DNA of 64,000 nt from Candidatus Aquidulcis sp. (GCA_020723345.1 DYJA01000027.1:794-64793), one strand, 5' to 3'; shown: positions 8,975-27,650, counted from the stretch's first letter. The notes: generated by a model from the letters alone, not told the origin. A program made the numbers and translations.

Positions 8975-9004
8975 CTGCGTGCGTTCGATCCTCAGGTTGG
9001 AAAC

Positions 9005-9265: not shown

Positions 9266-9278
9266 ATGGAGTACCCAA

Positions 9279-9506: not shown

Positions 9507-9613
9507 CAGTCAATCAGGCAATCGGTAATCAGGCGATCAGTAATCGGGCAGTCAGGACTGGTTGACTGATTGCCTAGTTGACTGGTTGCCCAATTGCCTG
9601 ATTGACCAGTTGC
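9507..9613. repeat. Word hairpin of the caatcagg / gattgac family. It spans the spacer and the last codons of hdrA-1.
   Basis: The left arm is intergenic (9507-9555). The right arm (9560-9613) encodes the C-terminal tail ...ERQLVNQAIGQPVN of hdrA-1 on the minus strand. Confidence 0.75.
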
Positions 9614-12600
9614 CTTTCCTCAAACAACGCTTCCACCTTCGCGATCACCTGCCCATCCTTATAGTGCATCAACTGAATCGCCTTGCCCGGACATTCCGCC
9701 GCGCAGATACCGCAACCCTGGCACGCCGCCGCTTCGATGTGCGCCGCGCCGTAAATACCGCCAATCGCTAGTTTTGCCGTGTCAATGCGCGGGACGCGGT
9801 ACGGGCAGATGCGAACGCACGTCAGACAGCCGGTGCATTTTTCCGCGTCGACTTGCGCGACGATGCCGCCCGCGTGCAACTTGTCTTTGGACAAAATCGT
9901 CGCGGCGCGCGCGGCGGCGGCTTGCGCTTGCGCGATCGCTTCGTTCGGAAATTTCGGATAATGCGCCGCGCCCGCAACGAACACGCCTTCCGTCGCGAAA
10001 TCGACCGGGCGCAGTTTCACATGCGCTTCCAGGAACCAACCGTCCGTGTCGACCGGCACTTTCAAAATGTTTGCCAACTCGCGCGCGTCCTCGTGCGGTG
10101 TCAGCGGCGACGCGACGACGACGAGATCGGCGTTCAGCGTGATTTCCTCGCGCAGCATTGGCTCCCAAACGCGGACGCTGACCGCCGACCGCCGACCGCC
10201 GACCGCCGTCTGCCGTCGGTCGTCTGCGGTCTCAATTTTCGGCAAATGCGCGTCGTCGTAGTGAATGATGACCACGCCGCGCTTGCGCGCTTCTTGATAA
10301 ATCCGCTCGCGAAAGCCGTATGTGCGAATGTCTTTTGTAAGGATCGTCACGCGCGCGTTCGGGTTCAACTCCTTCAAGCGCAGCGCGTTTTCCAGCGACT
10401 CGGTGCAGCACAAGCGTCCGCAATATTTTTCCGCGGGACCGACGCATTGGATGAAAACAACGGTCAATCGGGGATCGGTCAATCGGGCAATCGGTTGCCT
10501 AGTCGCCTGGTTGACTGATTGACTAATTGACTGATTGACTAGTTGACTAAACTCCGACTGCGTGATAACCCGCGCGTCCTTCCCCAAGCCATACGCGTCG
10601 CCGCGCCATTCTTGCGCGCCCGTCGCGACGATGACGACGCCGTGCTTGACCGTTTGCTCCGCGCCGTCCGCGCGTCTCAGGCGACTAACGAAATTGCCGA
10701 CGAAACCGGTTGTCTCAACCACCTGGGTTTCTCGATGAACGAAGATGCGCGGATGCGCGCCCACATGCGCGATCAACTCCCGCGTGTACGTGCCCCAATC
10801 GGTTCCGACTGTTGACTGTTCACTGTTGACACTCAACTGTCCCCCGAGATGCGCGCTCTTCTCGACCAAATGCACCGGGAAACCCTGCTCCGCGAGATTC
10901 AGCGCGGCGTTCATTCCCGCGATCCCGCCGCCGATCACGAGCGCGCTTTTGTCGAGCGCCACCGGCACTTTGAACAGCGGTTCGAGTTGCGACACACGCG
11001 CGACGGACGCGCGCACCAAATCCTTCGCCTTCTGCGTTGCTACGTTCCAGTCATGCGAATGGACCCACGAACACTGATTGCGAATGTTCGCCATCTCGAA
11101 CAGATACGCATTCAGCCCCGCCATCCGAATCGAATCCTGAAACAGCGGCTCGTGCGTGCGCGGGGTGCAGGCAGAGACCACCACGCGATTCAAGTTCTGT
11201 TCCTTCACGACCTGCGTGATGCGCGCAATCGAATCTTGCGAGCAGGTGTACAGATTCGTTTCAGCGTGAACGACATTGGGTAAAGTGCGCGCGTACTCCG
11301 CGACCGCTTTCACGTCCAGATAGCCCGCGATGTTCGACCCGCAGTGGCAGACGAACACGCCGACGCGCGGCGACTCTTGCGCGATCTCGCGCTCCGGCGG
11401 ATACTCTTTGCGCCGCGCCAACGCGCCGCGCACTTGCGCCAGCAACACCTCCGCGTTCGCCGCCGCGCCGCTCGCGTCCATCACCGTTTCCGGAATATCT
11501 TTCGGTTCGATGAACGGACCCGCCGCGAAAATTCCCGCGCGCGACGTTTCGAGCGGGCGAAACGGAATCGTCTGGCAGAATCCGTAATCGTCGAGCGCGA
11601 CGCCCAGTTTCATTCCCAGGTCGCGTACCCTTTGCGAAATCTCCATCCCGACGGAGAGGACGACGAGATCAAACTCCTCTTCAATGATAGGCAATCGGTC
11701 AATCAGGGATCGGTCAACTGGTTGCCCAATCGCCTGATCGCCTGATTGACTAATTGACTCGGCATAGCGTACGACGAGATTTCCATTCGCCGGATTTTCC
11801 TTCACCGCCGAGACGCGGCACCGCGAATACTTGACCCCGTACCGCTCCCGCGCGCGTTGATAATATTCCGCGTACCCTTTGCTGAACGCGCGCGCGTCCA
11901 TCATAAAAATGTGAATGTCCGCGTCGCGGTCGTGCTCCTTCGCGATCATCGCCTCTTTCGCGGCGTACATACAGCAGACCGCGCTGCAATAATCGTGGGT
12001 CTGATCGCGCGAGCCGATGCACTGCAAGAACGCAATCTTGCGCGCGGGCTTGCCATCGCTTGGTCGCGTCACATGCCCGCTCGTCGGACCCGACGCGGAG
12101 AGCAAGCGTTCGAATTGCAGACTCGTGACGACGTTCGGGAATCGTCCGAAACCGAATTCCTCCGACAATTCCGCGCGGTACACCTCGTACCCCGGCGCGA
12201 GAATCACCGCGCCGACCTGGATTTGATCTTCGCGCTCGACCATCTCGTGGACGATGGCGTTGACGCCGCACGCCTTGACGCACTGATAACACTCGGCGCA
12301 CAAGCCGCACGCGAGACAGCGCTCCGCTTCCGCGACCGCCTGCTCCTCGGTCAGCACTTGCTCCACTTCCCGAAAATCGCCGACGCGCGCCGCGACCGGT
12401 TCCGTCGCGATCCGGGGTCGTGCGCCGCGCGTGATTTCGCCGCGCGCGCGTTTCGCTTCGATTTCCGCGTCGGTCCATTTGCCAACCGGCAACGGCTGCT
12501 CTTCACGCGCGCTGATCATCGGCAAGCCGCGCAGATGGCGATGAATCGAAAGCGCGCCGCGCCGCCCCGCCGCAATCGCGTCGATCAGCATTCCCGGACC

Positions 12601-14211
12601 TTGCGCCGCATCGCCTCCGGCAAAAATGCCTGGGACGTTCGTTGCGAGTGTGATGGAATCCACGTGGAACCAGCCCTCGCGCGCAACCTTCAAACCGTGA
12701 TCCGGCGTGAGGAGCGAAATCTCCGGCGCTTGCGCGACCGCCGCGATCAGCGCGTCCGCTTCGATGACGAATTCCGAACCTGGGATCGGCACCGGGCGGC
12801 GTCGCCCGCTCGCGTCCGGCTCGCCGAGTTGCATCCGCACGCAGCGCACGCCGCGCACGCGTCCGTCGTCGCGCAGCACCTCGACCGGCGCGGTGAGCAA
12901 CTCGACGCGCATCCCTTCCGCTTCACCGGCGGCGACCTCGTGCGGCAGCGCGGGCATCTCCGCGCGCGTGCGGCGGTAAAGCAGCGTCACCTCTTGCGCG
13001 CCGACGCGCCGCGCGGTGCGCGCCGCGTCGATCGCGGTGTTGCCGCCGCCGACGACGATGACGCGCTTGCCCAGTTCGACCTTTTCGCCCAGACTCACGC
13101 GCCGCAAGAACGCGACGCCGTAATGCACGCCGCTTGTCCCGCGTTCGCCGGGAATTCCCAGTTCCTGCGGTTGATGCGCGCCGACCGCGAGAAAAATCGC
13201 TTTGAATCCTTGGCGAAAAAGATCGCGCAAGTCATGCACCGGGCGATTCAGCCGAATCTCAACGCCTTCTGCGCGAATGTCGTCAATCTCGCGCTCGAGC
13301 ACCGCGCGCGGCAGACGATACGCGGGAATCCCGACGCGCATCATGCCGCCCGCGACCGACAGCGCCTCGAACACCGTCGCTTTGTAGCCGAATCGCGCGA
13401 GGTGGTGCGCGCACGAAAGCCCGGCGGGACCTGAGCCAACAATCGCGATTTCTTCGGCGTACTGGCGCTCCGGCGCGATCACCGGCGCGCCCGCTTGCTG
13501 ATCGGCGACGAACCGCTTGAGCGCGCAGATCGCGATTGGCTCGTCCACCTGTCCGCGCGAACATTCGCTCTCGCACGGATGCGAGCAGACCCGTCCGACC
13601 GTCGCGGGAAACGGATTGTACTGCTTGATCACTTCGAGCGCGTCCGCGTAGCGCCGCGCCTTGATCAGCGCGACGTACCCCTGCGCGCTCGTGTTCGCCG
13701 GGCAAGTCGCTTTGCACGGCGCGATACCGCGCTTTTCGATCGCGTACGCCGCGGGAATCGCTTGCGGATAAAGCCGGTACGCCGCGTGGCGCTTCGACAG
13801 ATGCTCGTTGTACGGATCGGGCAAAACGATCGGACAGACTTTTTCGCAATCGCCGCAGCCGATGCACTGGGTCACGTCCACGTAGCGCGGCTTGCGTTTC
13901 AGCGTCGCGGTGAAATTGCCCGCCGCGCCGTTCACGTCGAGCACTTGCGTATCGGTCAATATTTCGATGTTAAGGTGCCGCCCTGCTTCGACGAGGCGCG
14001 GCGCGAGCGTACACATCGCGCAATCGTTCGTCGGGAACGTCTTGTCGAGTTGCGCCATGTGTCCGCCGATGGCGGATTTGGATTCGACGAGATAGACTTT
14101 GAATCCGCTTTCGGCGAGATCGAGCGCGGCTTGAATTCCGCCGACGCCACCGCCGACGACCATCACCGCGCCGATCGGGGTGTTCGATTGAGCATGACCT
14201 TCATCAGCCAT
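9574..14211 (-). CDS. hdrA: Giant HdrA-like flavoprotein: HdrA N-terminal module + GltD/NfnB-like NAD(P)H module + rest of HdrA + a second HdrA-like module.
   Basis: 1545 aa. VVGGGVGGIQAALDLA...TNDCAMC is the HdrA FAD/Cys motif. CSHPCESECSRG...IVGSGPAGLSCA is GltD-like. A second GGGIAGMNAALNLA module follows, then the C-terminal CTGCLTCVRICP...CQGCGICAAECP ferredoxin domain. Confidence 0.9.
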   Translation of the reverse strand: MADEGHAQSNTPIGAVMVVGGGVGGIQAALDLAESGFKVYLVESKSAIGGHMAQLDKTFPTNDCAMCTLAPRLVEAGRHLNIEILTDTQVLDVNGAAGNFTATLKRKPRYVDVTQCIGCGDCEKVCPIVLPDPYNEHLSKRHAAYRLYPQAIPAAYAIEKRGIAPCKATCPANTSAQGYVALIKARRYADALEVIKQYNPFPATVGRVCSHPCESECSRGQVDEPIAICALKRFVADQQAGAPVIAPERQYAEEIAIVGSGPAGLSCAHHLARFGYKATVFEALSVAGGMMRVGIPAYRLPRAVLEREIDDIRAEGVEIRLNRPVHDLRDLFRQGFKAIFLAVGAHQPQELGIPGERGTSGVHYGVAFLRRVSLGEKVELGKRVIVVGGGNTAIDAARTARRVGAQEVTLLYRRTRAEMPALPHEVAAGEAEGMRVELLTAPVEVLRDDGRVRGVRCVRMQLGEPDASGRRRPVPIPGSEFVIEADALIAAVAQAPEISLLTPDHGLKVAREGWFHVDSITLATNVPGIFAGGDAAQGPGMLIDAIAAGRRGALSIHRHLRGLPMISAREEQPLPVGKWTDAEIEAKRARGEITRGARPRIATEPVAARVGDFREVEQVLTEEQAVAEAERCLACGLCAECYQCVKACGVNAIVHEMVEREDQIQVGAVILAPGYEVYRAELSEEFGFGRFPNVVTSLQFERLLSASGPTSGHVTRPSDGKPARKIAFLQCIGSRDQTHDYCSAVCCMYAAKEAMIAKEHDRDADIHIFMMDARAFSKGYAEYYQRARERYGVKYSRCRVSAVKENPANGNLVVRYAESISQSGDQAIGQPVDRSLIDRLPIIEEEFDLVVLSVGMEISQRVRDLGMKLGVALDDYGFCQTIPFRPLETSRAGIFAAGPFIEPKDIPETVMDASGAAANAEVLLAQVRGALARRKEYPPEREIAQESPRVGVFVCHCGSNIAGYLDVKAVAEYARTLPNVVHAETNLYTCSQDSIARITQVVKEQNLNRVVVSACTPRTHEPLFQDSIRMAGLNAYLFEMANIRNQCSWVHSHDWNVATQKAKDLVRASVARVSQLEPLFKVPVALDKSALVIGGGIAGMNAALNLAEQGFPVHLVEKSAHLGGQLSVNSEQSTVGTDWGTYTRELIAHVGAHPRIFVHRETQVVETTGFVGNFVSRLRRADGAEQTVKHGVVIVATGAQEWRGDAYGLGKDARVITQSEFSQLVNQSISQSVNQATRQPIARLTDPRLTVVFIQCVGPAEKYCGRLCCTESLENALRLKELNPNARVTILTKDIRTYGFRERIYQEARKRGVVIIHYDDAHLPKIETADDRRQTAVGGRRSAVSVRVWEPMLREEITLNADLVVVASPLTPHEDARELANILKVPVDTDGWFLEAHVKLRPVDFATEGVFVAGAAHYPKFPNEAIAQAQAAAARAATILSKDKLHAGGIVAQVDAEKCTGCLTCVRICPYRVPRIDTAKLAIGGIYGAAHIEAAACQGCGICAAECPGKAIQLMHYKDGQVIAKVEALFEERQLVNQAIGQPVN

Positions 14212-14287
14212 TGCCTCACCTACTTTCCACGCGTGCTCAACGCGCGTTCACACCGCGACAACCCGATTCATTCGGGTCGAATCCGGA

Positions 14288-14647
14288 TCAACCACTCAGC
14301 GCTTTTATCCGCCGTAACAACTCCGCCGGTCGTACCGGCTTTTCGATATACTCCACCGGTTTGACGCCGACCGTCGGCATCGCGCTCAAACTGCCGGAGA
14401 GACTCGTCAGCAAAATCACCGGCACATCCGCCAGCCCTGGCTCCGCTTGCAATTTCTCATAGATATCAAACCCGCTCTCGCCCGGCATGATCACGTCGAG
14501 AATGATCAGGTCGGGGCGCGCCGCGCGCGCCTGCGCCAATCCCGCCGCGCCGCTGTACGCGATGTCCACTTGGTACGGCGCGCTCTCCAACACCGTGCGC
14601 GTGGCTTCCACAAAATCGCGGTCGTCGTCAATCACCAGAATTCGCAT
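14288..14647 (-). CDS. Single-domain response regulator (receiver).
   Basis: MRILVIDDD...LIILDVIMPGESG...EKP matches the CheY-like receiver pattern. Confidence 0.85.
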   Translation of the reverse strand: MRILVIDDDRDFVEATRTVLESAPYQVDIAYSGAAGLAQARAARPDLIILDVIMPGESGFDIYEKLQAEPGLADVPVILLTSLSGSLSAMPTVGVKPVEYIEKPVRPAELLRRIKALSG

Positions 14648-14658
14648 ATTTCATTCGT

Positions 14659-15849
14659 TCATTCGTTTATTCGTTCTCGATTCGTCGACACCCACTGTCT
14701 CCGTCGCATCTCCGGAGTTTGCAAATTGCGCGGAATCACCACCGTAAATCGCGTCCCCGTTTTGCCTTCGCCATACGGGCTTGAGACGCGAATCGCGCCG
14801 CCGTGCGCGTCCATAATTTTCTTGGCGAGCGCCAAACCCAGCCCGGTACCGGGCGCGTCGCCCACATTATCCGCGCGATAAAAATCTTCAAAGATGTGCG
14901 GCAGATCTTCCGGCGGAATGCCAACTCCTTCGTCTTCAACTTCGAAGTACAGCGTGTCCGGCTCGTACCACGCGCGAAAGACCACGGCGCTGCCTTCGGG
15001 CGAGAACTTGACGGCGTTGCTGAGCAGATTGGTCAGGACCTGCCGCAGCCGGCGGCGCGCGCCGACGATCTTCTCGAAATGCGGCGGCGGCACGATTTTG
15101 ATTTTGATGTTGCGCTCCGCCGCCGCCAGCCGCACATCCTCGAACGCTTCGGTGCCAACCTCGCCGGGATCGAACCATTCGAAATCGGCTTGGATTTGCT
15201 CCGGGCGCATCCGCGCCAGGTCCACCAGATCGCCGATCAGGGCGCGCAAATCTCGGACGCGCAGCAAACTGCGCTGCAACATGCGCTGCTGCTTTTCGGT
15301 CAGGTCGCCCGTAAAGCGATCCAGCATCACCTGGAGATAATTCTCGATCGCGGACAGCGGCGCGCGCAATTCGTGCGACGCGATCGATAGAAAGAACGTC
15401 AGCGTGTCCATCGCGTTCTTGTAGCGCGTGCCGATCAGCGACGCGAGCGCCGTCAAAACTTTGAGCCCGGCGGCGGGATGCCGCTCCAGGTACTCGCGCA
15501 GCGCCGCGCCGTCAATGGCGATCACGCGCGTCGGCTCCAGGCACAGCCCGGTCGAGGTGTAAACGTAGGGTTGCACGAGCGCGGACCACCCCGCCACGCT
15601 GCCCGGTTCGACATAGCCGACGGTTGCCGCGCGCGCTTTGGCGCGTTTGCTCAACTGAATCTTTTTCTCCAGCGCCAGTTTTCCGGACTCGACCAGAAAC
15701 AACCGCTCGGCGCGCGCGTCTTCGGTCAGCAATACGGCGTTTTCCGGATGCGCCTCTTCGCGGCAGAACCGGGCGATGTCCGTCAATTCCGCGTCGGTCA
15801 GTTCGCCAAAAATATCTGACTGTTTCAAGCGTTCACTCAGATTTCCCAT
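14659..15849 (-). CDS. Histidine kinase with an N-terminal cyclic-nucleotide-binding-like domain.
   Basis: The N-terminus is cNMP-binding-like (IFGELTDAEL...LFLVESGKL). The H-box is SIASHELRAPLSAI, and an HATPase domain is present (NAVKF, DEGVGI, GTGLGLA). Confidence 0.85.
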   Translation of the reverse strand: MGNLSERLKQSDIFGELTDAELTDIARFCREEAHPENAVLLTEDARAERLFLVESGKLALEKKIQLSKRAKARAATVGYVEPGSVAGWSALVQPYVYTSTGLCLEPTRVIAIDGAALREYLERHPAAGLKVLTALASLIGTRYKNAMDTLTFFLSIASHELRAPLSAIENYLQVMLDRFTGDLTEKQQRMLQRSLLRVRDLRALIGDLVDLARMRPEQIQADFEWFDPGEVGTEAFEDVRLAAAERNIKIKIVPPPHFEKIVGARRRLRQVLTNLLSNAVKFSPEGSAVVFRAWYEPDTLYFEVEDEGVGIPPEDLPHIFEDFYRADNVGDAPGTGLGLALAKKIMDAHGGAIRVSSPYGEGKTGTRFTVVIPRNLQTPEMRRRQWVSTNRERINE

Positions 15850-17230: not shown

Positions 17231-17326
17231 CGTCGGTCCCAGAATTTTCGATTTCTGATTTTCGATTTTCGATTTGACTCTTGAACGACCGCCAGCAATC
17301 GAAAATCGGCAATCGCCCATCGAAAA

Positions 17327-17713
17327 TCATTTGAGCAGCGCTTTGACGCGCCGCAATAACTCCGCGGGTGCCACGGGTTTTTGCGCATAGTCTTGCACAT
17401 CCATCGCCAGACCTGTCTCCAACTCATAACGCCGGCGGCTCGCGTCTTCGACAACGGTGGTGAGAACCATAATCGGCACGTCCGCGAACTGGGGATCGCG
17501 GCGCATCTCCCGGATGACGCCCCAGCCGTCCAGGCGCGGCATCAACAAATCCAGGATCAACAGATCCGGCGCTCTTTGCGCGATCATCTCCAGACATTTC
17601 TTGCCGTCGCGCGCCGTTGCCAGGTGATAGGGCTGAGTCTCCAGAACGGCGGTGATGCCATCGAGAATGTCCGGGTCGTCATCCACAATCAAGATGTACG
17701 GTTTGTCTCCCAT
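17327..17713 (-). CDS. Single-domain response regulator (receiver).
   Basis: MGDKPYILIVDDDPDILD...LLILDLLMPRLDG. The ATG at 17713 follows a GAGGGAGG RBS. The longer track ORF would run into the mvhD-2 tail. Confidence 0.85.
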   Translation of the reverse strand: MGDKPYILIVDDDPDILDGITAVLETQPYHLATARDGKKCLEMIAQRAPDLLILDLLMPRLDGWGVIREMRRDPQFADVPIMVLTTVVEDASRRRYELETGLAMDVQDYAQKPVAPAELLRRVKALLK

Positions 17714-17812
17714 CGCCCCCTCCCTCGGAGTGACGGGTGACATGTGAGATTGCAGGTGACACGGCATCTCGCGCGCTTGCCACATGTCACTTGCTACTCT
17801 TCTTGTCACTTG

Positions 17813-18247
17813 TCACACGCCACTTGCCACTTTCTTCACCGGATTCGGTCCCATACGCTTGATCTCGGCGGTCAACTCAGCCACAGAGAAGGCGAATTGC
17901 CCGCCCATCGCCGACGACAAGTTGATCATCTGGACCCGGCGTCCTTCGAGACCGATCTGCTCCAACAACTGGCTGACGTATTCCACACGCTTGCGTGCCC
18001 GCAGATTACCTTCCAGGTAATGACAATCGCCTTCCAGTCAGCCCGCCACTAGCACACCATCGGCGCCATCCTCGAACGCGCGCAGCACGTACAACACGTC
18101 AAGTTTCCCGGTGCAAGGCAACTCGATGACCTTGATACAAGTCGGATACTCGAGGCGCATACTGCCTGCCAGGTCGGCGGCGGCGTACGCGCAATAGTGA
18201 CAACAAAAAGCGATGATTTGTGGTTCGAAGCCGTTGGATCCAGTCAC
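17813..18247 (-). CDS. mvhD: MvhD-like protein with a predicted selenocysteine (TGA at 18038-18040).
   Basis: The track ORF ends ...DGVLVAG at the TGA. The same frame continues LEGDCHYLEGNLRARKRVEYVSQLLEQIGLEGRRVQMINL...MGPNPVKKVASGV to the TGA at 17813-17815. The likely start is GTG 18247, after GGAG. Confidence 0.8.
18005..18021 (-). promoter_or_regulatory. SECIS-like hairpin downstream of the mvhD-2 UGA.
   Basis: AUUACC-UGGAA-GGUAAU forms a 6-bp stem with a 5-nt loop. It starts 16 nt after the UGA. Confidence 0.55.
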
Positions 18248-18302
18248 GTGTTTCTCCAAGTCAAGCAATCAGTGATTGGTCAATCAGAAATCGGGCGATC
18301 GG

Positions 18303-21300
18303 TCAACTGACTACTGATTGCCCAATTGACTGATTAACTGGTTGACCAAACAACGCATCCACCTTCGTCAAGTTCTGCCTGTCCGTACTGTGCATCAACT
18401 GAATCGCCTTCGCCGGACACTCCGCCGCGCAAATCCCGCAGCCGTGACAGACGGCAGTCTCGACGAATGCCGCGCCAAGGATGTTGCCCACACCAACTTC
18501 AGTTGGCATGATCTTCGGCACGTGGTACGGACAGGAGCGCACACACGTCAAGCAGCCGACACACTGCTCGGGGTTGACGATCGCGACGCGCGCGCTCGTC
18601 AGCATTTTTTCTTGCGCGAGAATGTTCGCCGCGCGCGCCGCGGCGGCTTGCGCCTGCACGATCGTCTCGTCCAGGAACTTTGGATAGTGCGCCACGCCCG
18701 CCATGAATATGCCGTCTGACGCGAAATCGACCGGGCGCAACTTGACGTGCGCCTCCAGGAAAAACCCGTCCATGTCCACCGGCACTTTGAGCGCGGTGCC
18801 CAATTCGCGCGCGCCCTTGGGCGCAACCACGGGCGTCGAAAGCACGAGCAGATCGGCGTTCAGCGTCAGTTCCTCGCCCAGCATCGGCTCCCAGACGCGG
18901 ACAGCCAGGCGACCGTTGACCGCTGACCGCTGACCGCTGCTGTCTGCCGTCTGCGGTCGGTCGTCTGCGATCAGCACATCCGGCTTGCGATCAAAATCGT
19001 AGCGGATAAACACCACGCCCGCGCGGCGCGCTTCGGTGTAAAGCCGTTCCTTGAACCCGTAGGTGCGAATGTCACGATAAATTATAGTCACGCGCGCCTG
19101 CGGATTCAACTCCTTGAGTTTGAGCGCGTTCTTGAGCGCGGTCGTGCAGCACAGGCGGCTGCAGAACTTTTCGCCCGGACCGACGCATTGGATCATCACC
19201 ACGTTTGTCAATTGGCGCTCAGTCAATTGGTCAACCAGTTGACTAGTTGCCTGATCGCCTGATCGCCTGACTGCCTGATCGCCCGATTGACTCAGAATCT
19301 GCTCAAACTCCAACTGCGTGACGATGCGCGGATCCTTGCCGTACCCGTACTCCTTGCCTTTGTACTCGACGCCGCCGGTGGCAACGATGGTCGCGCCATG
19401 CGACACGTGGAACGTCTGCCCATTGCGGAGCGTCGAAACAAAGTTGCCCTTGAATCCGCCGGTCTCGATCAACTGGGTGTTGAGGTGCACGGTAATCAAC
19501 CGATTTGTCTCGACGCGCGCGATCAAATCGCGCAGATACGCTTGCGCGTCTTCGAATTTCGACTCGCCATCCTGCGGCGGTTCCCAGGTCGGGAGGAAAC
19601 GCAAATGGCGCAAGTTGCCGCCGAGTTGATCCGTCCGCTCAACCAGATGCACGGGGAATCCTTGATCCGCGAGACTGAGCGCCGCGTTCATCCCCGCCGC
19701 CCCGCCGCCGATGATCAGCGCGGCATGGTTCACGCTGACTTGCGACGTGCTCAACGGTTCGAGTTGCGTCGCGCGCGCGACCGCCATCCGCGCCAACGTT
19801 TTGGCTTTTTCAGATGCGCCCGTGCGGTCGCTTCCATGCACCCACGAACATTGATTGCGGATGTTCGCCATTTCGAACAGGTACGGATTCAGCCCGGCTT
19901 GGCGGATCGCATCCTGGAACAATGGCTCGTGCGTCAACGGCGTACACGACGCGACGACAACGCGATTGAGATTCAATTCCTTGGTCTGCTCGATAATGTG
20001 CGCGATCGTGTCTTGCGAGCAGGTGTACAAATTATCTTCCGCGTGGACGACGCCGGGCAGCGTGCGCGCGTATGCCGCGACTCCCGGCACGTCGAGATAG
20101 CCGCCGATGTTCGAACCGCAGTGGCACACGAACACACCCACGCGCGGCAATTCGGTGGTCACCGCGCGCTCCGCCGGATATTCGCGTTGGCGCACCAGCG
20201 TGTGCCGCGCGGGCGCGAGCAAACGCGCCGCCGCGGTCGCCGCGCCGCTCGCTTCCATTACGGTTTCGGGAATGTCTTTCGGTTCGCGGAAAGGTCCCGC
20301 GACATAAATGCCCGCGCGACTGGATTGCAGCGGATCGAACAACGTCGTGTGACAAAAGCCGTACGGGTCGAGTTCGATGCCGAGTTTGTGCCCGAGTTGC
20401 TTGACGCCATCCGCGATCTCCATCCCCACGGAGAGCACGACGAGGTCGAATTCTTCTTCGATAACGGACGATCGGTAATCAGTCCATCGGTCAACTGGTT
20501 GCCCAACTGCCTGATCGCCTGATTGCCTGATCGCCTGATTGCCCGATTGACTAGTTGACTCCGTTACATAGCGCGCCACCAAGTTCCCATTCGCCGGATT
20601 TTCCTTCACCGACGAAATGCGACAGCGCGTATACTTGACCCCGTACTTTTTCTCCGCGCGGCGATAGTATTCCTCATAGCCCTTGCTGAACGCGCGCGTG
20701 TCCATGAAAAACACTTGACACTCGACCTGTCCGTCGTGCCCTTCGACCTTGGCGTGTTCGAGCGCCATGATCGCTTCTTTCGCCGCGTACATACAGCAGA
20801 CCGACGAGCAATAATCGTGACTCTGGTCGCGGCTGCCCACGCACTGCAAGAACGCGATGCGTTTGGGACTCGCGCCGTCCGACGGTCGCTTGACGTGTCC
20901 CTGCGTGGGTCCCGACGCGGAGAGCAAGCGTTCGAATTGCAGCGAGGTGACGACATTCGAGTACCGTCCCAGCCCGTACTCCTCGGACAACTCCGCGCGA
21001 TAAATCTGATACCCCGGCGCGAGAATCACCGCGCCCACTTGAATCCGCTCGGTGCGCTCGACCATGTCGTGGAGCACCGCGCCGCGCTGGCACGCGTAGT
21101 AGCAACTCAAACATTCCGAGCAAATGCCGCAGGCGAGACAGCGCGCCGCTTCGGTTTTCGCTTCCTCTTCGGTGTAGCCGCGCGCCACTTCGTCAAACGA
21201 TCTGACGCGCGCCGCGACATCGAGCGCGGACATTTTGACGCGCGGCTGCACGCGCACTTCGCCTTTTTCGATCCGCTGATCGATTTCCGCGCGCGTGAGT

Positions 21301-23060
21301 TTCACGACCGGCAGATCGAGCGCGCGCGGCGGTCGTTCGAGCGGCTTGCCTTGCAAGAAGAGTTGGATCGATTCCGCCGCGCGATGTCCGGCGGCGACTG
21401 CCTCGATCACGAACGCGGTGCCGGTCGCGACATCGCCCGCCGCGAAAACGCCGGGGCGCGTCGCCGCGAGCGTGTTCGGATTCACCGCGACGGTGCCGCG
21501 TCGCGTCGTGCCGACGCCGGTATCGGGAGGAATAAACGCGAGACCGGCGGCTTGCCCAATCGAAAAGACAACCGTGTCGCACGAAATCACGTGCTCGCTG
21601 CCTTCATGCGTCGTGATGTCGGGACGACCCTCGCTGTCAAAGCCCCTAAATTCGATGTTGCGGCACTCGACGCCTGCAACATGACCGGTGCCATCGTCCA
21701 ATATTTTTGTAAAAGAGCGCGCGGGAAAAATCTCGATGCCTTCTTCCTCGGCTTCTTGAATTTCCCACGGATGCGCCGGCATTTTCTCGCGCGATTCGAG
21801 ACACGCCATCTTGACTTTTCTCGCGCCGAGACGCACCGCCGTGCGCGCGACATCAATCGCGACGTTGCCGCCGCCGAGCACTAACACATCGCGCCCGAGC
21901 ACTGCCGGAGCGTTGCCGAGCCGCGTGTCGCGCAGAAAGATCGTGTTGATCATCACCCCGGTGAGATCCGCGCCGGGGATTCGCAATTTCTTGCCTTCGT
22001 GCGCGCCGACCGAGATCAGCACCGCGTTGAAACCTTCGTCGAACAACGCGTCCAGATTCGTCACCGGCGAATTCAACCGCAACTCGACGCCGAGATCGAC
22101 GATGTCTTGCACTTCGCGATCGACCATCGCGGACGGCAGCCGATATTCCGGCACGCCGACGCGCAACATGCCGCCCGCGACCGGCAGCGATTCGAACACG
22201 GTGACGCCGTAACCTTGCTTGACCAAATCCATCGCGGCGGTGAGTCCGCACGGACCGGAGCCGATGATCGCGATGCGTTCATCGCGCGTCCGCGCAACCG
22301 GTTCGATCTTGGGACGCGGCTTGGCGTACACCTGATCGACGAGAAAACGCTTGAGGTCTTTGATCGCGATCGGTTCATCCAACTGACCGCGATTGCACTC
22401 GGTCTCGCAGCGATGATTGCAGATGCGTCCGCAAATTCCCGGGAACGGATTTTCTTCTTTGATGACGCGCAGCGCGTCTTCGTACCGGCCCTCGCGCACG
22501 AGCGCGATGTACCCCTGCGCGCGCGTGTTAACCGGGCACGCGTCGCGGCACGGCGAAACGCCGCGCTTGTCAATCGCGTACGCGGCGGGAACTGCCTGCG
22601 GATAGAGCCGATAAACGGCGTGCCGCTGCGCCAGGTTCGCGTTGTACGGGTCAGGCAAGTTGATCGGACAAACTTTTTCGCAATCGCCGCAGCCGACGCA
22701 CTTCACCAGATCAATATAGCGCGGCTTGCGGCGCAGCGTCGCGGTGAAATTGCCCGCGCGTCCCTGCACATCCACAACTTCGGTGTCCACCAGAATCTGG
22801 ATGTTGAGGTTGTTGCCCGCTTCGTTGAGTTTCGGCGAGATCGTGCACATCGCGCAGTCGTTCGTCGGGAACGTCTTGTCGAGTTGCGCCATGTGCCCGC
22901 CAATCGCGGACTTGCTTTCGACCATGTACACTTTAAAGCCGGCTTCAGCCAGGTCGAGTGATGCTTGAATTCCCGCGATCCCGCCGCCGACGACCATCAC
23001 GGCGCCGACAGGTGGCGGATTTGCATTCGGTTGTTGGGCGTGACCGTCATCAGTCATCAT
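18303..23060 (-). CDS. hdrA: Giant HdrA-like flavoprotein, paralog 2, with the same HdrA + GltD/NfnB-like + second-HdrA architecture.
   Basis: 1585 aa and collinear with 9574-14211. Shared motifs include VVGGGIAGIQASLDLA...TNDCAMC, CNHRCETECNRG...IIGSGPCGLTAA, GGGAAGMNAALSLA and the C-terminal CVGCLTCVRSCP...CHGCGICAAECP. Confidence 0.9.
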   Translation of the reverse strand: MMTDDGHAQQPNANPPPVGAVMVVGGGIAGIQASLDLAEAGFKVYMVESKSAIGGHMAQLDKTFPTNDCAMCTISPKLNEAGNNLNIQILVDTEVVDVQGRAGNFTATLRRKPRYIDLVKCVGCGDCEKVCPINLPDPYNANLAQRHAVYRLYPQAVPAAYAIDKRGVSPCRDACPVNTRAQGYIALVREGRYEDALRVIKEENPFPGICGRICNHRCETECNRGQLDEPIAIKDLKRFLVDQVYAKPRPKIEPVARTRDERIAIIGSGPCGLTAAMDLVKQGYGVTVFESLPVAGGMLRVGVPEYRLPSAMVDREVQDIVDLGVELRLNSPVTNLDALFDEGFNAVLISVGAHEGKKLRIPGADLTGVMINTIFLRDTRLGNAPAVLGRDVLVLGGGNVAIDVARTAVRLGARKVKMACLESREKMPAHPWEIQEAEEEGIEIFPARSFTKILDDGTGHVAGVECRNIEFRGFDSEGRPDITTHEGSEHVISCDTVVFSIGQAAGLAFIPPDTGVGTTRRGTVAVNPNTLAATRPGVFAAGDVATGTAFVIEAVAAGHRAAESIQLFLQGKPLERPPRALDLPVVKLTRAEIDQRIEKGEVRVQPRVKMSALDVAARVRSFDEVARGYTEEEAKTEAARCLACGICSECLSCYYACQRGAVLHDMVERTERIQVGAVILAPGYQIYRAELSEEYGLGRYSNVVTSLQFERLLSASGPTQGHVKRPSDGASPKRIAFLQCVGSRDQSHDYCSSVCCMYAAKEAIMALEHAKVEGHDGQVECQVFFMDTRAFSKGYEEYYRRAEKKYGVKYTRCRISSVKENPANGNLVARYVTESTSQSGNQAIRQSGDQAVGQPVDRWTDYRSSVIEEEFDLVVLSVGMEIADGVKQLGHKLGIELDPYGFCHTTLFDPLQSSRAGIYVAGPFREPKDIPETVMEASGAATAAARLLAPARHTLVRQREYPAERAVTTELPRVGVFVCHCGSNIGGYLDVPGVAAYARTLPGVVHAEDNLYTCSQDTIAHIIEQTKELNLNRVVVASCTPLTHEPLFQDAIRQAGLNPYLFEMANIRNQCSWVHGSDRTGASEKAKTLARMAVARATQLEPLSTSQVSVNHAALIIGGGAAGMNAALSLADQGFPVHLVERTDQLGGNLRHLRFLPTWEPPQDGESKFEDAQAYLRDLIARVETNRLITVHLNTQLIETGGFKGNFVSTLRNGQTFHVSHGATIVATGGVEYKGKEYGYGKDPRIVTQLEFEQILSQSGDQAVRRSGDQATSQLVDQLTERQLTNVVMIQCVGPGEKFCSRLCCTTALKNALKLKELNPQARVTIIYRDIRTYGFKERLYTEARRAGVVFIRYDFDRKPDVLIADDRPQTADSSGQRSAVNGRLAVRVWEPMLGEELTLNADLLVLSTPVVAPKGARELGTALKVPVDMDGFFLEAHVKLRPVDFASDGIFMAGVAHYPKFLDETIVQAQAAAARAANILAQEKMLTSARVAIVNPEQCVGCLTCVRSCPYHVPKIMPTEVGVGNILGAAFVETAVCHGCGICAAECPAKAIQLMHSTDRQNLTKVDALFGQPVNQSIGQSVVS

Positions 23061-23096
23061 TGTTCCCTCGTCATCAAAGCCGGACCAGATTAGTGG

Positions 23097-23125
23097 TTGC
23101 TAAACCGCGACGCGCGTGCTATAAT
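23097..23125 (+). promoter_or_regulatory. Sigma70-like promoter for the second DUF2283-type cassette.
   Basis: TTGCTA (23097-23102), a 17-nt spacer, then the extended -10 TGcTATAAT (23117-23125). Confidence 0.5.
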
Positions 23126-23142
23126 AAGCCAAGAAAATCACA

Positions 23143-23529
23143 GTGGGGTCAGCAGTGGTCGAGCGACAAATCCTTTGGACGGTAACAGACCCACGCGGGA
23201 CAAGCGTATCTCTCACCGAAGACGTTTGGCAAGAACACACTGCTTATCGTCCAGAAATCGCCGCGTATCTCGATGCGATTCGCTTGACCATTGAGAACCC
23301 TGACGCCATCTACTTTGATCCCAAGACAACTGCGCGCAGAACGACCGGAGCGAGAATTTACCTGTATTACCGCAGCAATCTGACTCACGGAAAATACGCC
23401 GGGAACTATGTTGTCGTCGTGGTTAAGCTTGTGCTTGAATCCGATCACATCCAGCGCGGCTATGTCGAATCGGCGATGTTGCCTGGGCGTATAATGAAAA
23501 GGGCGGTACTCGAATGGCAAAGACCATGA
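23143..23529 (+). CDS. Toxin-like small protein (DUF4258 / PBECR-like; uncertain).
   Basis: 128-aa ORF with a GTG start. It overlaps the following DUF2283-like gene by 16 nt. The pattern ...ENPDAIYFD...YLYYR...VVVVV... resembles small RNase-type toxins. Confidence 0.5.
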   Translation: MGSAVVERQILWTVTDPRGTSVSLTEDVWQEHTAYRPEIAAYLDAIRLTIENPDAIYFDPKTTARRTTGARIYLYYRSNLTHGKYAGNYVVVVVKLVLESDHIQRGYVESAMLPGRIMKRAVLEWQRP

Positions 23530-23804
23530 AAATAACCGATTATCACTACTATCCAGACAGTGACGAACTTGACCTCGTCATCAACGTAGACAAACCCCAG
23601 CCCGCGATCTCGGTCTACGTGGACGACGATTTCTACCTGCGTGTGAACCCTGATACGCAGCAAGTCGTCGGCGCAACGATTCTCAACGCGAGCGAAGTTT
23701 TCGCAAACCTCGCGCGGGCTTTTGCGCTAAAGGAATTGGACGATTCCAACGTGCGCTTTTTCTTCGAGCGCAAGGTTGAATCGTTCGCCCTCGAACCTGC
23801 GTAA
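23514..23804 (+). CDS. DUF2283-like antitoxin candidate.
   Basis: 96 aa: MKITDYHYYPDSDELDLVI...VVGATIL, a DUF2283-like pattern. Confidence 0.6.
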   Translation: MAKTMKITDYHYYPDSDELDLVINVDKPQPAISVYVDDDFYLRVNPDTQQVVGATILNASEVFANLARAFALKELDDSNVRFFFERKVESFALEPA

Positions 23805-23925
23805 GCGGCGGACTTGCATCCACGCGTACTTTTCCCCTCTGCTCTCAATCTCGCACAAGTGACAGGTGACAGGATGAGTCGCACGTCACCTGTCACTTCC
23901 CTTGTCACTTGTTCCTCGCTGCCTG

Positions 23926-24354
23926 TCACTTTTTCTTCACCGGATTCGGTCCCAACTTTTTTACGCGTTCGACCATCGTCTCGGCAGCAGTCGCGAACGT
24001 CTTGCCTTGTCCGCCACTCATAAAAAACATGTCGAGCCGCTCGCCGCCGACGCCGATTTCGTCCAGGATTCTCTTTGCGCGCTCGACGCGCTTTTTGCCG
24101 CGCTCGTTCCCTTTGACGTGATGGCAGTTGCCCAGCGGACACGCGACGACGTACACGCCGTCCGCGCCTTGCTCGAACGCGGCGAGAATATAGCGCACGT
24201 CAATCTTGCCGGTGCATGGCAATTTCACGTACTTGACGTTCGACGGATATTCCCAACCGAGCGTGCCTGCCGTGTCCGCCGCCATGTATCCGCAAAAGAT
24301 GCAGCCGAACGCGGTGATGTCTGGTTCAAAGCCGTTTTTTCCGTTGTTACTCAT
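23926..24354 (-). CDS. mvhD: MvhD-like protein, the Cys-containing paralog.
   Basis: 142-aa uninterrupted ORF. GFEPDITAFGC..C...LPCTGKIDV...GADGVYVVACPLGNCHHVKGN aligns with the two TGA-containing paralogs. Confidence 0.9.
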   Translation of the reverse strand: MSNNGKNGFEPDITAFGCIFCGYMAADTAGTLGWEYPSNVKYVKLPCTGKIDVRYILAAFEQGADGVYVVACPLGNCHHVKGNERGKKRVERAKRILDEIGVGGERLDMFFMSGGQGKTFATAAETMVERVKKLGPNPVKKK

Positions 24355-24431
24355 TCTTATTCTCGACTCTCGTGATGCGTGAAACGTGATACGTGATCAC
24401 GATTCACGCATCACGCATCACGTTTCATATC

Positions 24432-27400
24432 CTACGCCGTCACCCAACTTCCCAGCCCTGCCGTCTCGCGCAGCATGATTTGTTCGTCGCGATAATTCAC
24501 GAGTTGAATCGCGGTCGCCGGACATTCGCCGGTGCAAGTGCCGCAACCCTGACATTTCGCCGGATCGATCCACGCCGCGCCCATGATGTTGCCGTTTCCC
24601 ACAACCTTGGGATCGATCTGCGGAATGAGGAACGGGCACGTGCGCGTACACGTCAAACAGCCAACGCATTTCGATTGATCCACCTGCGCGACTACGCCGC
24701 CGACGTACAGCGGTTCCTGCGACAAAATCGTGACGACCCGCGCCGCCGCGGCGAGCGCGTGCGCGATCGATTCTTCGATGAATTTTGGATAGTGCGCCAT
24801 CCCCGCGATGAAGATGCCTTCTTCCATGAAATCCATCGGACGCATCTTCAAGTGCGCTTCCATGAAGAATCCTTCCGACGAAAGCGGCACGCGCAAAATC
24901 TGCGCGAGTTTTTCCGCGCCATCCGACGGCGTGACCTGCGTGCTGACCACGAGCAAATCGGGACGCAAAGTCAATTCCTCTTTCAAAACGGGTTCCTGCA
25001 CTCGCACTTGCAGCGACGTGAAAGCGAGATCGCCCCGGGGCAGCGCGCCCCATTCCTTCATCTCTCCTCTTTCATCCTTCATCTCTACGACCGGCTTCGT
25101 TTCGTCGGTGTAGCGAATGAACAACACCCCGCGCCGCCGCGCTTCGGTATAGTACTGTTCGCGGAAACCGTAAGTGATAATGTCCTTGTAGAGAACGACG
25201 ACTTCGCACTGCGGGTTCAGCATCTTGATGCGCGTCGCATTCTTCATCGTGTTGGTGCAGCAAACGCGCGAGCAGTATTCGGGATGACCCGGTTCGCGCA
25301 CGCATTGAATAATGACGACGCGCTTCAACTCGGCGACCCGCTCCGGCGAATGGACGATCATCTCTTCCAATTGATGCTGCGAAACGACGCGCGGATCTTG
25401 TCCCAGCAAATATTCTTTGCCGCGATGTTCCTGTCCGCCGGTCGCGACAATCGTCGTGCCGTGTTCGATGATCGACTGCACCGGCTGCGGCGCGCCCTTG
25501 ACGTGCGTCGCAAGCACGGTGCGAAACGCGCCGACGTGCCCACGATGTTCGATCACCTGACTGCGCGTAAAGACGCGAATGCGATCGTGTCCGACGACGC
25601 GGTTGATCAAATCGCGCAGCAACCTCTGGGGATTACTGCCTTCGACGGTAAAATGAATGTTGTGCAAATTCCCGCCGAGGTTTTCTTCGCGTTCGACCAA
25701 GACGACTTCGTACCCGGCGTCCGCGACCGCGAGCGCAGCCGTCATCCCGGTAACCCCGCCGCCGATGACGAGCGTGCGCGGAATCGGCTTGATGCCGGTC
25801 TTGTACACCGGCGCGAGTTGGGTCGCGCGTGCGGCGGCGACGCGCACCAGTTCCTGCGCTTTGCGCGTCGCGCCCGCCGGATCGTGCCGGTGCACCCACG
25901 CGCATCCTTCGCGAATATTCGCCATCTCCAACAAGTTCGCGTTGAGCCGCGCTTCGCGAATGACGCGCTGGAACAACGATTCGTGCGTGCGGTGCGAACA
26001 CGCGGCGACGACGACGCGGTTGATCCCGTGCGCCTCGATGGCGTGGCGAATGCGCGCCTGACCTTCCGGTAAGCAGAGGTACGCGACGTGTTCGGCAAGC
26101 GCGACGTTGGGCAGTTTTTCAGCGGACGCGGTTAGCGTGTCAGTGCTGACGACCTGGGAGATCGCGTCGCCGCATGAACAAACGAACACACCGAGACGCG
26201 CGGGTTCGTTCGCGACATTGCGCTCGGGCTGAAATTCACCGTCGTGCGCGATGAAGGGATGCTCGCGGCTGCGCGGCGCGCGGCTGATCTTCGTCGAAAG
26301 CAAACGCATCACTTCCGCCGCCGCGCCGCTCGCGTCGATGATGCTTTCGGCGATTTCTTTGGGCGATTGGAACGCGCCGCAAACGTACACGCCGGGTTTG
26401 TTCGTTTGCAGCGGCGCGAATTTGTCCGTCTCGCAAAAGCCGTAGGAATTCAGCGTGATACCGAGTTGTTTCGCGAGCGCGGTGGCTTGCGCGGGCGGCT
26501 CCATGCCGACCGCGAGAACGACCATGTCGAAATTTTCTTTCTGCCGCGCGCCATCCGCCGCGACATATTCCGCGACGAGATTGTGCGTCTCCGGATCCTC
26601 TTTCAAATTCGAAACGCGGCAGTGCGTGTAATCAATGTGATATTGCTCGCGCGCTTGTTTGAGGTACGCGCTGTACTCTTTGTTGAACGCGCGCTCGTCC
26701 ATCGAAAAAATGCGGCAGTCGACGCCGGGGACACGCTGCTTCGCCAGCATCGCCTCTTTCGTCGCGAACATGCAGCAGATCGACGAGCAGTACGGATGCG
26801 TCTGATCGCGCGAGCCGACGCACTGCAACCACGCGACCTTTTTCGGCGCGGCGCCGTCGGACGGACGCGTGATCATGCCTTCGGTCGGACCGGAACGGCT
26901 GGCGAGCCGTTCGTACTCCATGCTCGTGATGACGTTGGAGAAACGGCCATACCCAAATTCTTCGCTCAAGCGCGGATCGTACAATTGATGGCCGACCGCC
27001 AGAATGATCGCATCCACATGAACGTCCGCGTCGCGCGCGGTTTCTTTCAAATTGATCGCGCGGGTCGGGCAAATCTGTTCGCAGCGGCGACAGTCGTCGC
27101 AGTACGGACCGTAGTCAATGACGTACGCGTTCGGTGTGGCGCGCGGCGCGATTTTGTACGCGGCGCGACGCGTGGTCAGTCCGGCTTCGAACCCGCGCGG
27201 CTTTTCGACCGGGCAAACTTCGGCGCAGCGGCCGCAGTTGGTACAGCGTTCCGGTTCCACATAGCGCGGCTGTTTCCGCAGCGTGACGGTGTAATCCCCG
27301 GCTTCGCCGGACGCGTTAAGTACCTGGGTGCCGGTCCACACCTCGATGTTGGGATGCAAATTGTAATCCATGAACGCGGGCGAAATCGCCGGACGCGTAC

Positions 27401-27641
27401 AGCCGTAGCCGTGATCCGAAGTGCCGCGACAGAGCACGCAGTCGTGCGTCGGAAACATAAAGCCGAGTTGTGCGACGCGTCCGCCAAGTCCGTGCGACGA
27501 TTCGACCAGGATCGCGCGAATTCCGGCTTCAGCCAGATCAATCGCCGCGCGCATACCGGCGACGCCGCCGCCGAGAACCATGACGGTGGCGACATCCTGC
27601 GTACGATTGGGATGATGGAGAGAATCGAAATTGTTGATCAC
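24432..27641 (-). CDS. hdrA: Double-module HdrA-like flavoprotein, paralog 3, lacking the GltD/NfnB-like insertion.
   Basis: 1069 aa with VLGGGVAGMRAAIDLA...THDCVLC, a second GGGVTGMTAALAVA module, and the C-terminal CVGCLTCTRTCP...CQGCGTCTGECP. Confidence 0.9.
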   Translation of the reverse strand: MINNFDSLHHPNRTQDVATVMVLGGGVAGMRAAIDLAEAGIRAILVESSHGLGGRVAQLGFMFPTHDCVLCRGTSDHGYGCTRPAISPAFMDYNLHPNIEVWTGTQVLNASGEAGDYTVTLRKQPRYVEPERCTNCGRCAEVCPVEKPRGFEAGLTTRRAAYKIAPRATPNAYVIDYGPYCDDCRRCEQICPTRAINLKETARDADVHVDAIILAVGHQLYDPRLSEEFGYGRFSNVITSMEYERLASRSGPTEGMITRPSDGAAPKKVAWLQCVGSRDQTHPYCSSICCMFATKEAMLAKQRVPGVDCRIFSMDERAFNKEYSAYLKQAREQYHIDYTHCRVSNLKEDPETHNLVAEYVAADGARQKENFDMVVLAVGMEPPAQATALAKQLGITLNSYGFCETDKFAPLQTNKPGVYVCGAFQSPKEIAESIIDASGAAAEVMRLLSTKISRAPRSREHPFIAHDGEFQPERNVANEPARLGVFVCSCGDAISQVVSTDTLTASAEKLPNVALAEHVAYLCLPEGQARIRHAIEAHGINRVVVAACSHRTHESLFQRVIREARLNANLLEMANIREGCAWVHRHDPAGATRKAQELVRVAAARATQLAPVYKTGIKPIPRTLVIGGGVTGMTAALAVADAGYEVVLVEREENLGGNLHNIHFTVEGSNPQRLLRDLINRVVGHDRIRVFTRSQVIEHRGHVGAFRTVLATHVKGAPQPVQSIIEHGTTIVATGGQEHRGKEYLLGQDPRVVSQHQLEEMIVHSPERVAELKRVVIIQCVREPGHPEYCSRVCCTNTMKNATRIKMLNPQCEVVVLYKDIITYGFREQYYTEARRRGVLFIRYTDETKPVVEMKDERGEMKEWGALPRGDLAFTSLQVRVQEPVLKEELTLRPDLLVVSTQVTPSDGAEKLAQILRVPLSSEGFFMEAHLKMRPMDFMEEGIFIAGMAHYPKFIEESIAHALAAAARVVTILSQEPLYVGGVVAQVDQSKCVGCLTCTRTCPFLIPQIDPKVVGNGNIMGAAWIDPAKCQGCGTCTGECPATAIQLVNYRDEQIMLRETAGLGSWVTA

Positions 27642-27650
27642 AATATAACC

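Follow-up and report, generated by a model that had tools for sequence, protein, structure and literature searches.

Three HdrA–MvhD modules before a single MetFV–HdrCB core in an uncultured Anaerolineae bacterium: candidate alternative electron ports

A 64,000-nt stretch of the genome of Candidatus Aquidulcis sp. (GCA_020723345.1 DYJA01000027.1:794-64793; the whole stretch is referred to here as the window, and its positions are used throughout) contains an Hdr-type methylene-tetrahydrofolate reductase (MTHFR) locus, also known as 'type IV' or Moorella/Sporomusa-type, of an uncultured Anaerolineae bacterium with the Wood–Ljungdahl pathway. In this locus three pairs of hdrA and mvhD genes accompany one set of metV, metF and fused hdrCB. 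Comparison of the genes with those of relatives makes it fairly probable that the pairs are separable modules acting as alternative ports to a single MetV–MetF and HdrCB core, with the extra module bounded by a recombination junction. The new features of the locus are the split in cofactor motif and flavin signature between two HdrA paralogs that carry a GltD domain, an exactly located junction within a gene at which the third module is gained or lost, and the recurrence of the three-module arrangement in three genera.

The metV, metF, hdrC/hdrB, hdrA and mvhD genes identified by Pfam are co-located and co-directional, all on the minus strand between positions 2942 and 27641. Read along this strand, the array begins with an rrf2 gene (27651–28142), followed by hdrA3 (24432–27641) and its cognate mvhD of the cysteine type (23926–24354; PF02662, E = 2e-41), which is separated by an 865-nt spacer with a plus-strand open reading frame (ORF) from hdrL2 (18303–23060) and its cognate mvhD of the selenocysteine (Sec) type (approximately 17813–18268; PF02662, E = 8e-47 with the UGA codon read through). 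A receiver gene, a gene for a six-transmembrane (6TM) PilS-like kinase, one for a kinase binding cyclic nucleotide monophosphate (cNMP) and another receiver gene lead to hdrL1 (9574–14211). A 2.9-kb islet (6652–9573) then precedes a Sec-type mvhD (6214–6651), metV (5439–6179; PF12225, E = 9e-33), metF (4422–5399; PF02219, E = 5e-41) and fused hdrCB (2942–4330), which encodes a 4Fe-4S dicluster and two CCG domains (PF02754 and Fer4 families) and matches the NCBIfam HdrB and HdrC models below cut-off. Only one hdrCB is present within the locus. The arrangement of three hdrA–mvhD pairs around one hdrCB–metFV set, proposed earlier in a sequence-only reading of the window, is therefore borne out by the Pfam searches.

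The two larger HdrA proteins, HdrL1 (1545 aa) and HdrL2 (1585 aa), are colinear and share 59 % identity. Each begins with an HdrA-like unit of the thioredoxin reductase (TrxR) type, in which a GltD/NfnB module of approximately 480 aa occupies the position of the ferredoxin insert, and continues with a complete HdrA unit composed of an MvhD-like domain, a TrxR domain and a C-terminal ferredoxin. The GltD module contains Fer4_20 (PF14691) and Pyr_redox_2 at residues ~165–560, flanked by HdrA segments, and is also recognized above cut-off by the NCBIfam model PRK12771 and by NfnB of T. maritima (4ylf_B, E = 2e-87), while PDB matches to HdrA and NfnB together tile both proteins. The third paralog, HdrA3 (1069 aa), is colinear with HdrL2 over both units (45 % identity), and the GltD module is the sole part that it is missing; it has two FAD Rossmann sites (residues ~18–64 and 622–660) and no Fer4_20. 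These profile matches agree with the sequence-only reading, which had assigned a GltD/NfnB-like module to two HdrA proteins of about 1550 aa and found no such insert in the third. All three proteins are internal pseudo-dimers of two TrxR units. Selenocysteine within the HdrA proteins was considered and rejected, as all three reading frames are open without UGA read-through. Both HdrL proteins also contain low-complexity inserts rich in Q, S, G, D and V (e.g. SQSGDQA.GQPVD) in variable loops, located at residues ~818–840 and 1227–1245 of HdrL1, at residues ~836–870 and 1258–1285 of HdrL2, and at both C-termini; these inserts are missing or different in every relative aligned, and similar words occur at the end of MvhD-1 and the start of MetV.

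Both designs have precedents in acetogens. In M. thermoacetica, a GltD FAD/NAD(P)H domain interrupts an additional TrxR-like domain of HdrA (162.8 kDa, 1487 aa), and both TrxR domains bear E/K (glutamate/lysine) flavin signatures; the HdrA of S. ovata (942 aa) contains two TrxR-like domains, with GltD absent (PMC9430772). The order of domains in Moorella HdrA (interrupted N-terminal TrxR, MvhD-like domain, TrxR, C-terminal ferredoxin domain) is that of HdrL1 and HdrL2, whose second unit is likewise a canonical HdrA without the inserted ferredoxin domain. Since Moorella HdrA has the GltD design, HdrL1 and HdrL2 represent the Moorella design and HdrA3 the Sporomusa design, and the GltD-bearing HdrA cannot be regarded as a departure from the known cluster, as had been supposed. 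The likeness to the HdrL proteins of sulfate reducers suggested at the same time holds for the architecture, but Moorella HdrA is the closer design and HdrL the more distant analogy.

The two GltD-type paralogs differ at the residues associated with the choice of nicotinamide cofactor. The GltD insert of HdrL1 contains the YRR motif (LLYRRTR), which is found in all the solved NADPH-binding relatives aligned, while HdrL2 has CLE at the same site (MACLESR). In NfnB, Y310, R311 and R312 hold the 2'-phosphate of NADPH, and in DsrL the presence or absence of YRR was shown kinetically to correspond to NADP(H) or NAD(H) specificity, respectively; YRR is a tested determinant in both proteins (PMC7596348). 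By analogy, HdrL1 is probably of the NADPH type, and HdrL2 is probably of the NADH type because CLE replaces the motif that binds the 2'-phosphate. Among relatives (designated by G numbers), YRR is also present in the HdrL1 ortholog of G012 and in the 'type 1' HdrL of G051, G043, G035 and G044, while CLE occurs in the single HdrL of five two-module genomes described below and in G052, G045, G042 and G055. In the 116 closest public homologs of HdrL2, CLE was found in 104 and YRR in none. The N-terminal part of hdrL1 in G007, which groups with that of G044, encodes FNR in place of YRR. HdrA3 has no nicotinamide site at all. The enzyme of M. thermoacetica has been shown to oxidize NADH.

A further difference concerns the flavin sites. 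An E/K pair (E356/K409) has been reported to separate bifurcating from non-bifurcating HdrA flavins (PMC9430772), and this signature is present in both units of HdrL2 (E710/K761 and E1253/K1310) and of HdrA3 (E244/K295 and E759/K800). HdrL2 thus resembles Moorella HdrA in carrying E/K in both TrxR units, whereas the C-terminal TrxR unit of HdrL1 has lost it (S1222/E1274), a loss common to HdrL1 and the single HdrL of G021, G010, G015 and G002 but not that of G017. The S. ovata protein has E/K in one TrxR domain only, in contrast to HdrA3.

The MvhD subunits are of two types. Two mvhD genes contain an in-frame UGA codon (18038–18040 and 6442–6444), and the third is of the cysteine type. The UGA codon falls within VAG-U-LEG, at a residue that is cysteine in G042 and in the Cys paralogs, and the host genome encodes a selenocysteine tRNA (76 bits) and SelA (485 bits), so that selenocysteine is a reasonable reading of UGA. 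A conserved 6-bp hairpin lies approximately 20 nt past the UGA in both Sec-type genes and overlaps conserved codons; folding downstream of the two codons gave z = +0.44 and −0.53 against shuffled sequences, with no significant selenocysteine insertion sequence (SECIS) signal. The class of MvhD tracks the type of HdrA, in relatives as well as in the window: VAG(U/C)LEG.CHYLEGN accompanies hdrL and VVACP.GNCHH accompanies hdrA3. Orthologs of the metV-adjacent mvhD with the same UGA adjoin metV in many relatives. MvhD(Sec)-2, in line with the C-terminal part of HdrL2 described below, is closer to the MvhD of G042 (74 % identity) than to MvhD(Sec)-1 (63–65 %).

To place the array in its lineage, metV and mvhD were located in 60 relatives and 40 loci were mapped with the proteins of the window; the family set comprised 23 genomes. 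The sequence-only reading had taken one hdrA and one mvhD as the baseline for comparison, but two modules, one hdrA–mvhD and one hdrL–mvhD, are the usual state in the Anaerolineae searched. The order rrf2–hdrA3–mvhD(Cys)–hdrL–mvhD(Sec)–metV–metF–hdrCB is found in the family members G021, G010, G015 and G017, and in G002, where it is split over two contigs; the class-level genomes G035, G055, G058, G043 and G042 have the same order without rrf2, and G044 has mvhD(Cys)–hdrL–mvhD–metV–metF–hdrCB up to the end of its contig, which leaves hdrA3 beyond view. An hdrL gene is the only module beside metV in G052, G045 and G051, and hdrA3 is the only one in G060. Two FlpD genes lie beside metV in many class members, and the adjacency of hdrL, mvhD and metV is kept across the class. 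At least two further genera share the three-module form: G012 has hdrL2, mvhD(Sec), the receiver and kinase genes and hdrL1 on one contig with 79–95 % identity, and G007, also on one contig, lacks the 6TM kinase and one receiver. Among the 23 family genomes, the HdrL1-type GltD module is limited to the window and G012. The rrf2 gene lies upstream of hdrA in G021, G010, G015, G007 and G002. In public databases, at least 6951 proteins match the GltD region at E ≤ 1e-30, the best 120 of which are Chloroflexota proteins of approximately 1500 aa.

Comparison of HdrL1 and HdrL2 with the single HdrL of the five two-module family genomes revealed that the latter is a hybrid of an HdrL2 N-terminal part and an HdrL1 C-terminal part. 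Over residues ~136–581 (HdrL2 numbering), the hybrids are 83–93 % identical to HdrL2 versus 34–69 % to HdrL1, and they retain 70–79 % identity to HdrL2 in the last window before the junction (582–678), while from residue ~685 to the end they are HdrL1-like in most windows (58–96 % versus 49–83 %). In each of the five, informative sites place the switch at residues 671–685, directly behind the GltD insert. This junction corresponds to positions 21006–21050 in hdrL2, and informative sites and trees locate the matching junction in hdrL1 at about residues 662–676 (12184–12228). An exact match of 26 nt between hdrL1 and hdrL2, among the three longest, lies at the switch (HdrL2 residues 676–684).

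Trees of the two parts tell the same story from both sides. The N-terminal part of HdrL2 belongs to a family-specific clade that is sister to G052, G045, G042 and G055, while its C-terminal part, together with the orthologs from G012 and G007, is nested in that outgroup, next to G042 and in the same group as G055. In HdrL1, the N-terminal part ('type 1') clusters first with G012 and next with G051, G043 and G035, and the C-terminal part forms a family clade together with all the hybrids. In the phylogeny of the paralogs, proposed earlier as a check, the N-part and C-part trees of HdrL are thus discordant. Further recombinants of N- and C-terminal parts were observed in G058, whose hdrL (L006, G058:C51, 4530-9181) combines a type-2-like N-part with a C-part of the G035 clade, and in G007 (L022, G007:C178, 5048-8386), where the N-part of hdrL1 is of different origin; the junction therefore behaves as a module-swap point.

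The most economical reading of the extra module's origin is an insertion into a native hdrL. In an event resembling single-crossover (Campbell-type) integration, approximately 8.8 kb would have recombined into the native gene at the conserved stretch after the GltD insert, bringing in mvhD and the receiver and kinase genes between the C-part of one hdrL and the N-part of another. The reverse polarity, in which a deletion joining two coherent paralogs gave rise to the two-module relatives, is disfavoured. It is in keeping with the tree of MetV, MetF and HdrCB, where the three-module genomes are scattered rather than monophyletic and the sister of the window is G002, with two modules, a distribution that requires at least three gains, four losses or lateral exchange. 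However, HdrL2 itself is discordant, with its N-part in the family clade and its C-part with G042 and G055, and the approximately unbiased (AU) test rejects outgroup monophyly, i.e. the concordant topology, with p = 0.00018 for a group that was named after the tree was seen. Informative sites at the nucleotide level are saturated, and the junctions of the five relatives are inseparable as to shared origin versus independent deletions.

In the genes of the third module, differences amount to 31–49 % at codon position 3 versus 3–32 % at positions 1 and 2, as in the core genes, a pattern that points to purifying selection and indicates that the three-module arrangement has been kept under such selection in at least three genera. 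Both hdrL copies of G012 have a frame break (L021, G012:C24, 1563-2001 and 8645-8736), which may reflect either assembly error or the onset of decay.

The block of signalling genes between hdrL2 and hdrL1 was initially thought to suggest condition-specific swapping of the electron-input module. Its composition is as described in the sequence-only reading, with two histidine kinases, one of them carrying a cNMP-binding domain, two receivers, and an Rrf2 regulator at the head of the array. One kinase has a 6TM PilS-like sensor (15833–17320; PF25323, HisKA, HATPase_c), and the other is cytoplasmic with an N-terminal cNMP-binding domain (14659–15849; PF00027, HisKA, HATPase_c). According to Pfam and NCBIfam, the stand-alone receivers RR1 (14288–14647; PF00072, with a DivK-like single-domain family as the best NCBIfam match) and RR2 (17327–17809; PF00072 only, with NCBIfam matches only to the receiver part of OmpR/PhoB models) consist of the receiver domain and have no DNA-binding output domain. 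They would therefore not bind DNA on their own, which leaves transcriptional swapping unsupported. Moreover, hdrL2, mvhD, the four signalling genes and hdrL1 lie 3–76 nt apart or overlap, which argues for their co-transcription, and promoter and terminator scans of positions 8600–28500 gave counts at chance level (8 versus 5.4±2.2 and 25 versus 26.9±6.0) that are uninformative on operon boundaries. Condition-specific swapping of modules is thus possible but unsupported, and any switch is more likely to operate by phosphorelay or at the protein level. The Rrf2 protein (PF02082, E = 4e-34; TIGR00738 above cut-off) has the cysteine pattern C-x7-C-x5-C-x2-C. In G038, G051 and G053, metV and metF are separated by homologous kinase and receiver genes, so that the link between the signalling set and the cluster is recurrent.

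In the reading of the three modules as alternative ports, MetV–MetF and the fused HdrCB would form one catalytic and electron-exit core. The first module would pair Sporomusa-type HdrA3, which lacks a pyridine-nucleotide domain, with Cys-MvhD and a non-nicotinamide partner; the second would pair Moorella-type HdrL2 (CLE, NADH pool) with a Sec-MvhD; and the third, Moorella-type HdrL1 (YRR, NADPH pool), whose C-terminal flavin site is without the E/K 'bifurcating' signature, would act with the other Sec-MvhD. The putative ports would tie the conversion between methylene-tetrahydrofolate and methyl-tetrahydrofolate to the NADH pool, the NADPH pool or the non-nicotinamide partner, and the clusters with hdrA only (G060) or hdrL only (G052, G045) fit separable, alternative input modules. 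Several points weigh against such a reading. Even for Moorella the second electron acceptor is unknown, and the S. ovata proteins form a loose complex (PMC9430772). The prediction of cofactor specificity draws on three residues that were tested in DsrL and NfnB, proteins other than HdrA, and clusters that combine hdrA3 with hdrL are frequent, which would suit an obligate hetero-complex as well; the scatter of three-module genomes in the core-gene tree and the frame breaks of G012 belong here as well. A more elaborate version, in which a cNMP-sensing kinase/receiver relay picks among an NADH port, an NADPH port and a nicotinamide-free port, so that the MTHFR would be cofactor-switchable and possibly transhydrogenating and the GltD boundary would be the junction at which lineages swap cofactor specificity, is speculative and rather unlikely.

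The obligate complex is a doubtful alternative, in which the HdrA paralogs would be subunits of one large hetero-oligomer with the MvhDs and the whole assembly would serve MetFV–HdrCB. The tandem of hdrA3–mvhD(Cys) and hdrL–mvhD(Sec) in most of the class clusters examined would be expected of it, and asymmetric heterodimers of HdrA paralogs have been proposed for anaerobic methanotrophic (ANME) archaea (PMC9012536). However, clusters with hdrL only (G052, G045, G051) or hdrA3 only (G060) exist beside metVF–hdrCB, the two TrxR units of each HdrA already make a pseudo-dimer within the protein, and the characterized clusters of Moorella and Sporomusa have a single HdrA (PMC9430772). The third module could also have arisen incidentally where a hot spot favours recombination or lateral exchange, and would then be redundant with the second and drift in and out of genomes with no role of its own. 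Its patchy presence (3 of the 23 family genomes, scattered in the core-gene tree rather than forming one clade), the recurring mosaic of N- and C-parts in G058 and G007, the islets and toxin–antitoxin cassettes accumulated in the same intergenic gaps and the broken frames of G012 are consistent with this, but purifying selection equal to that of the core genes, as judged from the codon-position pattern, and the fact that HdrL1 and HdrL2 differ exactly at the residues for NAD(P)H choice and flavin type, which are conserved within each type, make it improbable. The idea with the least to recommend it, and a very unlikely one, is that the upstream modules do not feed MetFV and act as an Nfn/Stn-like transhydrogenase, or on another acceptor, being merely co-located. 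NADH-type and NADPH-type GltD modules do stand side by side, and GltD/NfnB modules form the NADPH site of the Nfn and Stn transhydrogenases, but the conserved adjacency of hdrL, mvhD and metV across the class, the physical interaction of HdrA and MvhD with MetF and MetV in S. ovata (PMC9430772) and the single hdrCB in the locus argue otherwise.

The array is broken at two places by toxin–antitoxin-like cassettes. The 2.9-kb islet, which splits hdrL1 from its mvhD, carries plus-strand toxin-antitoxin-like genes identified by Pfam and contains a DUF433/DUF5615 pair, a 354-aa orphan, a DUF4258-like/DUF2283 pair and a 22-codon remnant of the mvhD 5' end. The plus-strand cassettes in the array gaps lie at 6557–7427, 8933–9506 and 23143–23529 and belong to the families DUF433/DUF5615, weak DUF4258 with DUF2283, and a weak PBECR2-like ORF. 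Gaps of 0.9–1.5 kb between hdrL and mvhD were also observed in the relatives G017, G035, G043 and G051. The mvhD remnant (7486–7551, minus strand; tblastn) is 91 % identical over its 22 codons to the N-terminus of the mvhD at 6214–6651 and lies upstream of the orphan; its presence inside the islet suggests that insertion of the islet duplicated the mvhD 5' end. The orphan (7596–8660, minus strand) has no Pfam family, and its homolog in G012 (L012:6136-7197; 88 % identity) occupies the same gap between hdrL1 and mvhD; therefore, the islet either predates the species or targets this site.

Upstream of the array, at 33.7–49.3 kb, the window encodes AcsB, both subunits of the corrinoid iron–sulfur protein (CFeSP), RACo, an AcsE-like pterin-binding protein and FolD, and the locus is therefore part of a Wood–Ljungdahl supercluster. 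At the other end, a 190-aa ORF (2308–2880, minus strand) between hdrCB and a fumarase gene matched nothing in Pfam or NCBIfam and is missing from the loci of relatives. In the host genome assembly (6.3 Mb, 95.5 % complete), a search for FlpD gave eight matches, one of them weak and partial, and further HdrA–MvhD sets were located elsewhere (G000:C40:17021-17392 and 27847-28215, L034); in one of these, a Sec-type MvhD is encoded next to an HdrCB-like gene and to a distinct HdrA of 38 % identity.

Compared with known systems, the locus combines familiar parts in a different way. The Moorella MetFV–HdrABC–MvhD cluster (Mock et al. 2014, per PMC9430772, PMC5736913) has the same gene set in a Wood–Ljungdahl context, but with one HdrA–MvhD pair instead of three; here, hdrC and hdrB are fused, two MvhDs are predicted selenoproteins, the YRR site sets the two GltD-type HdrA proteins apart, one of which is without E/K in its C-terminal unit, and a kinase/receiver block and toxin–antitoxin islets are embedded. 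The HdrCBA–MvhD–MetVF cluster of S. ovata (PMC9430772) has an HdrA of the same design as HdrA3, which is likewise followed by its own mvhD, but in the window HdrA3 coexists with two Moorella-type HdrA proteins. The hdrABC–mvhD–metVF clusters of marine Anaerolineae (DscP3, An-B22 and others; Sewell et al. 2017, PMC5736913) come from the same class and share the fused hdrCB and a two-component system associated with metVF; the text of that study makes no mention of multiple hdrA–mvhD modules, types of cofactor motif or an intragenic junction. In Desulfobacterium autotrophicum HRM2, HdrL likewise fuses HdrA-like and glutamate-synthase-like parts into a large protein with an NAD(P)H site, an mvhD follows each HdrL, and several MvhD proteins are selenoproteins, but the HdrL loci are linked to dsr and other genes rather than to metFV, and two of the three HdrL proteins contain Sec, in contrast to none of those described here (PMC2702500). 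HdrA9–11 of ANME-1, also a looser analogy than Moorella HdrA, have an NfnB-like insertion of approximately 500 aa at the same ferredoxin-insert position and may, it has been proposed, be linked to NADPH derived from MetF (PMC9012536), although these archaeal proteins occur in another gene context with no adjacent MetV/HdrCB core.

The powering of the Hdr-type MTHFR and its second electron partner are an open point in the bioenergetics of acetogens (PMC9430772), for which NADH-type, NADPH-type and nicotinamide-free HdrA proteins before one MetFV–HdrCB core provide a natural comparison set. The junction after the GltD insert marks where HdrL tolerates the exchange of modules, with intact hybrid genes in five genomes, and is of use both for the construction of chimeras and for the interpretation of the many thousand 'FAD-dependent oxidoreductase' annotations in Chloroflexota metagenomes.

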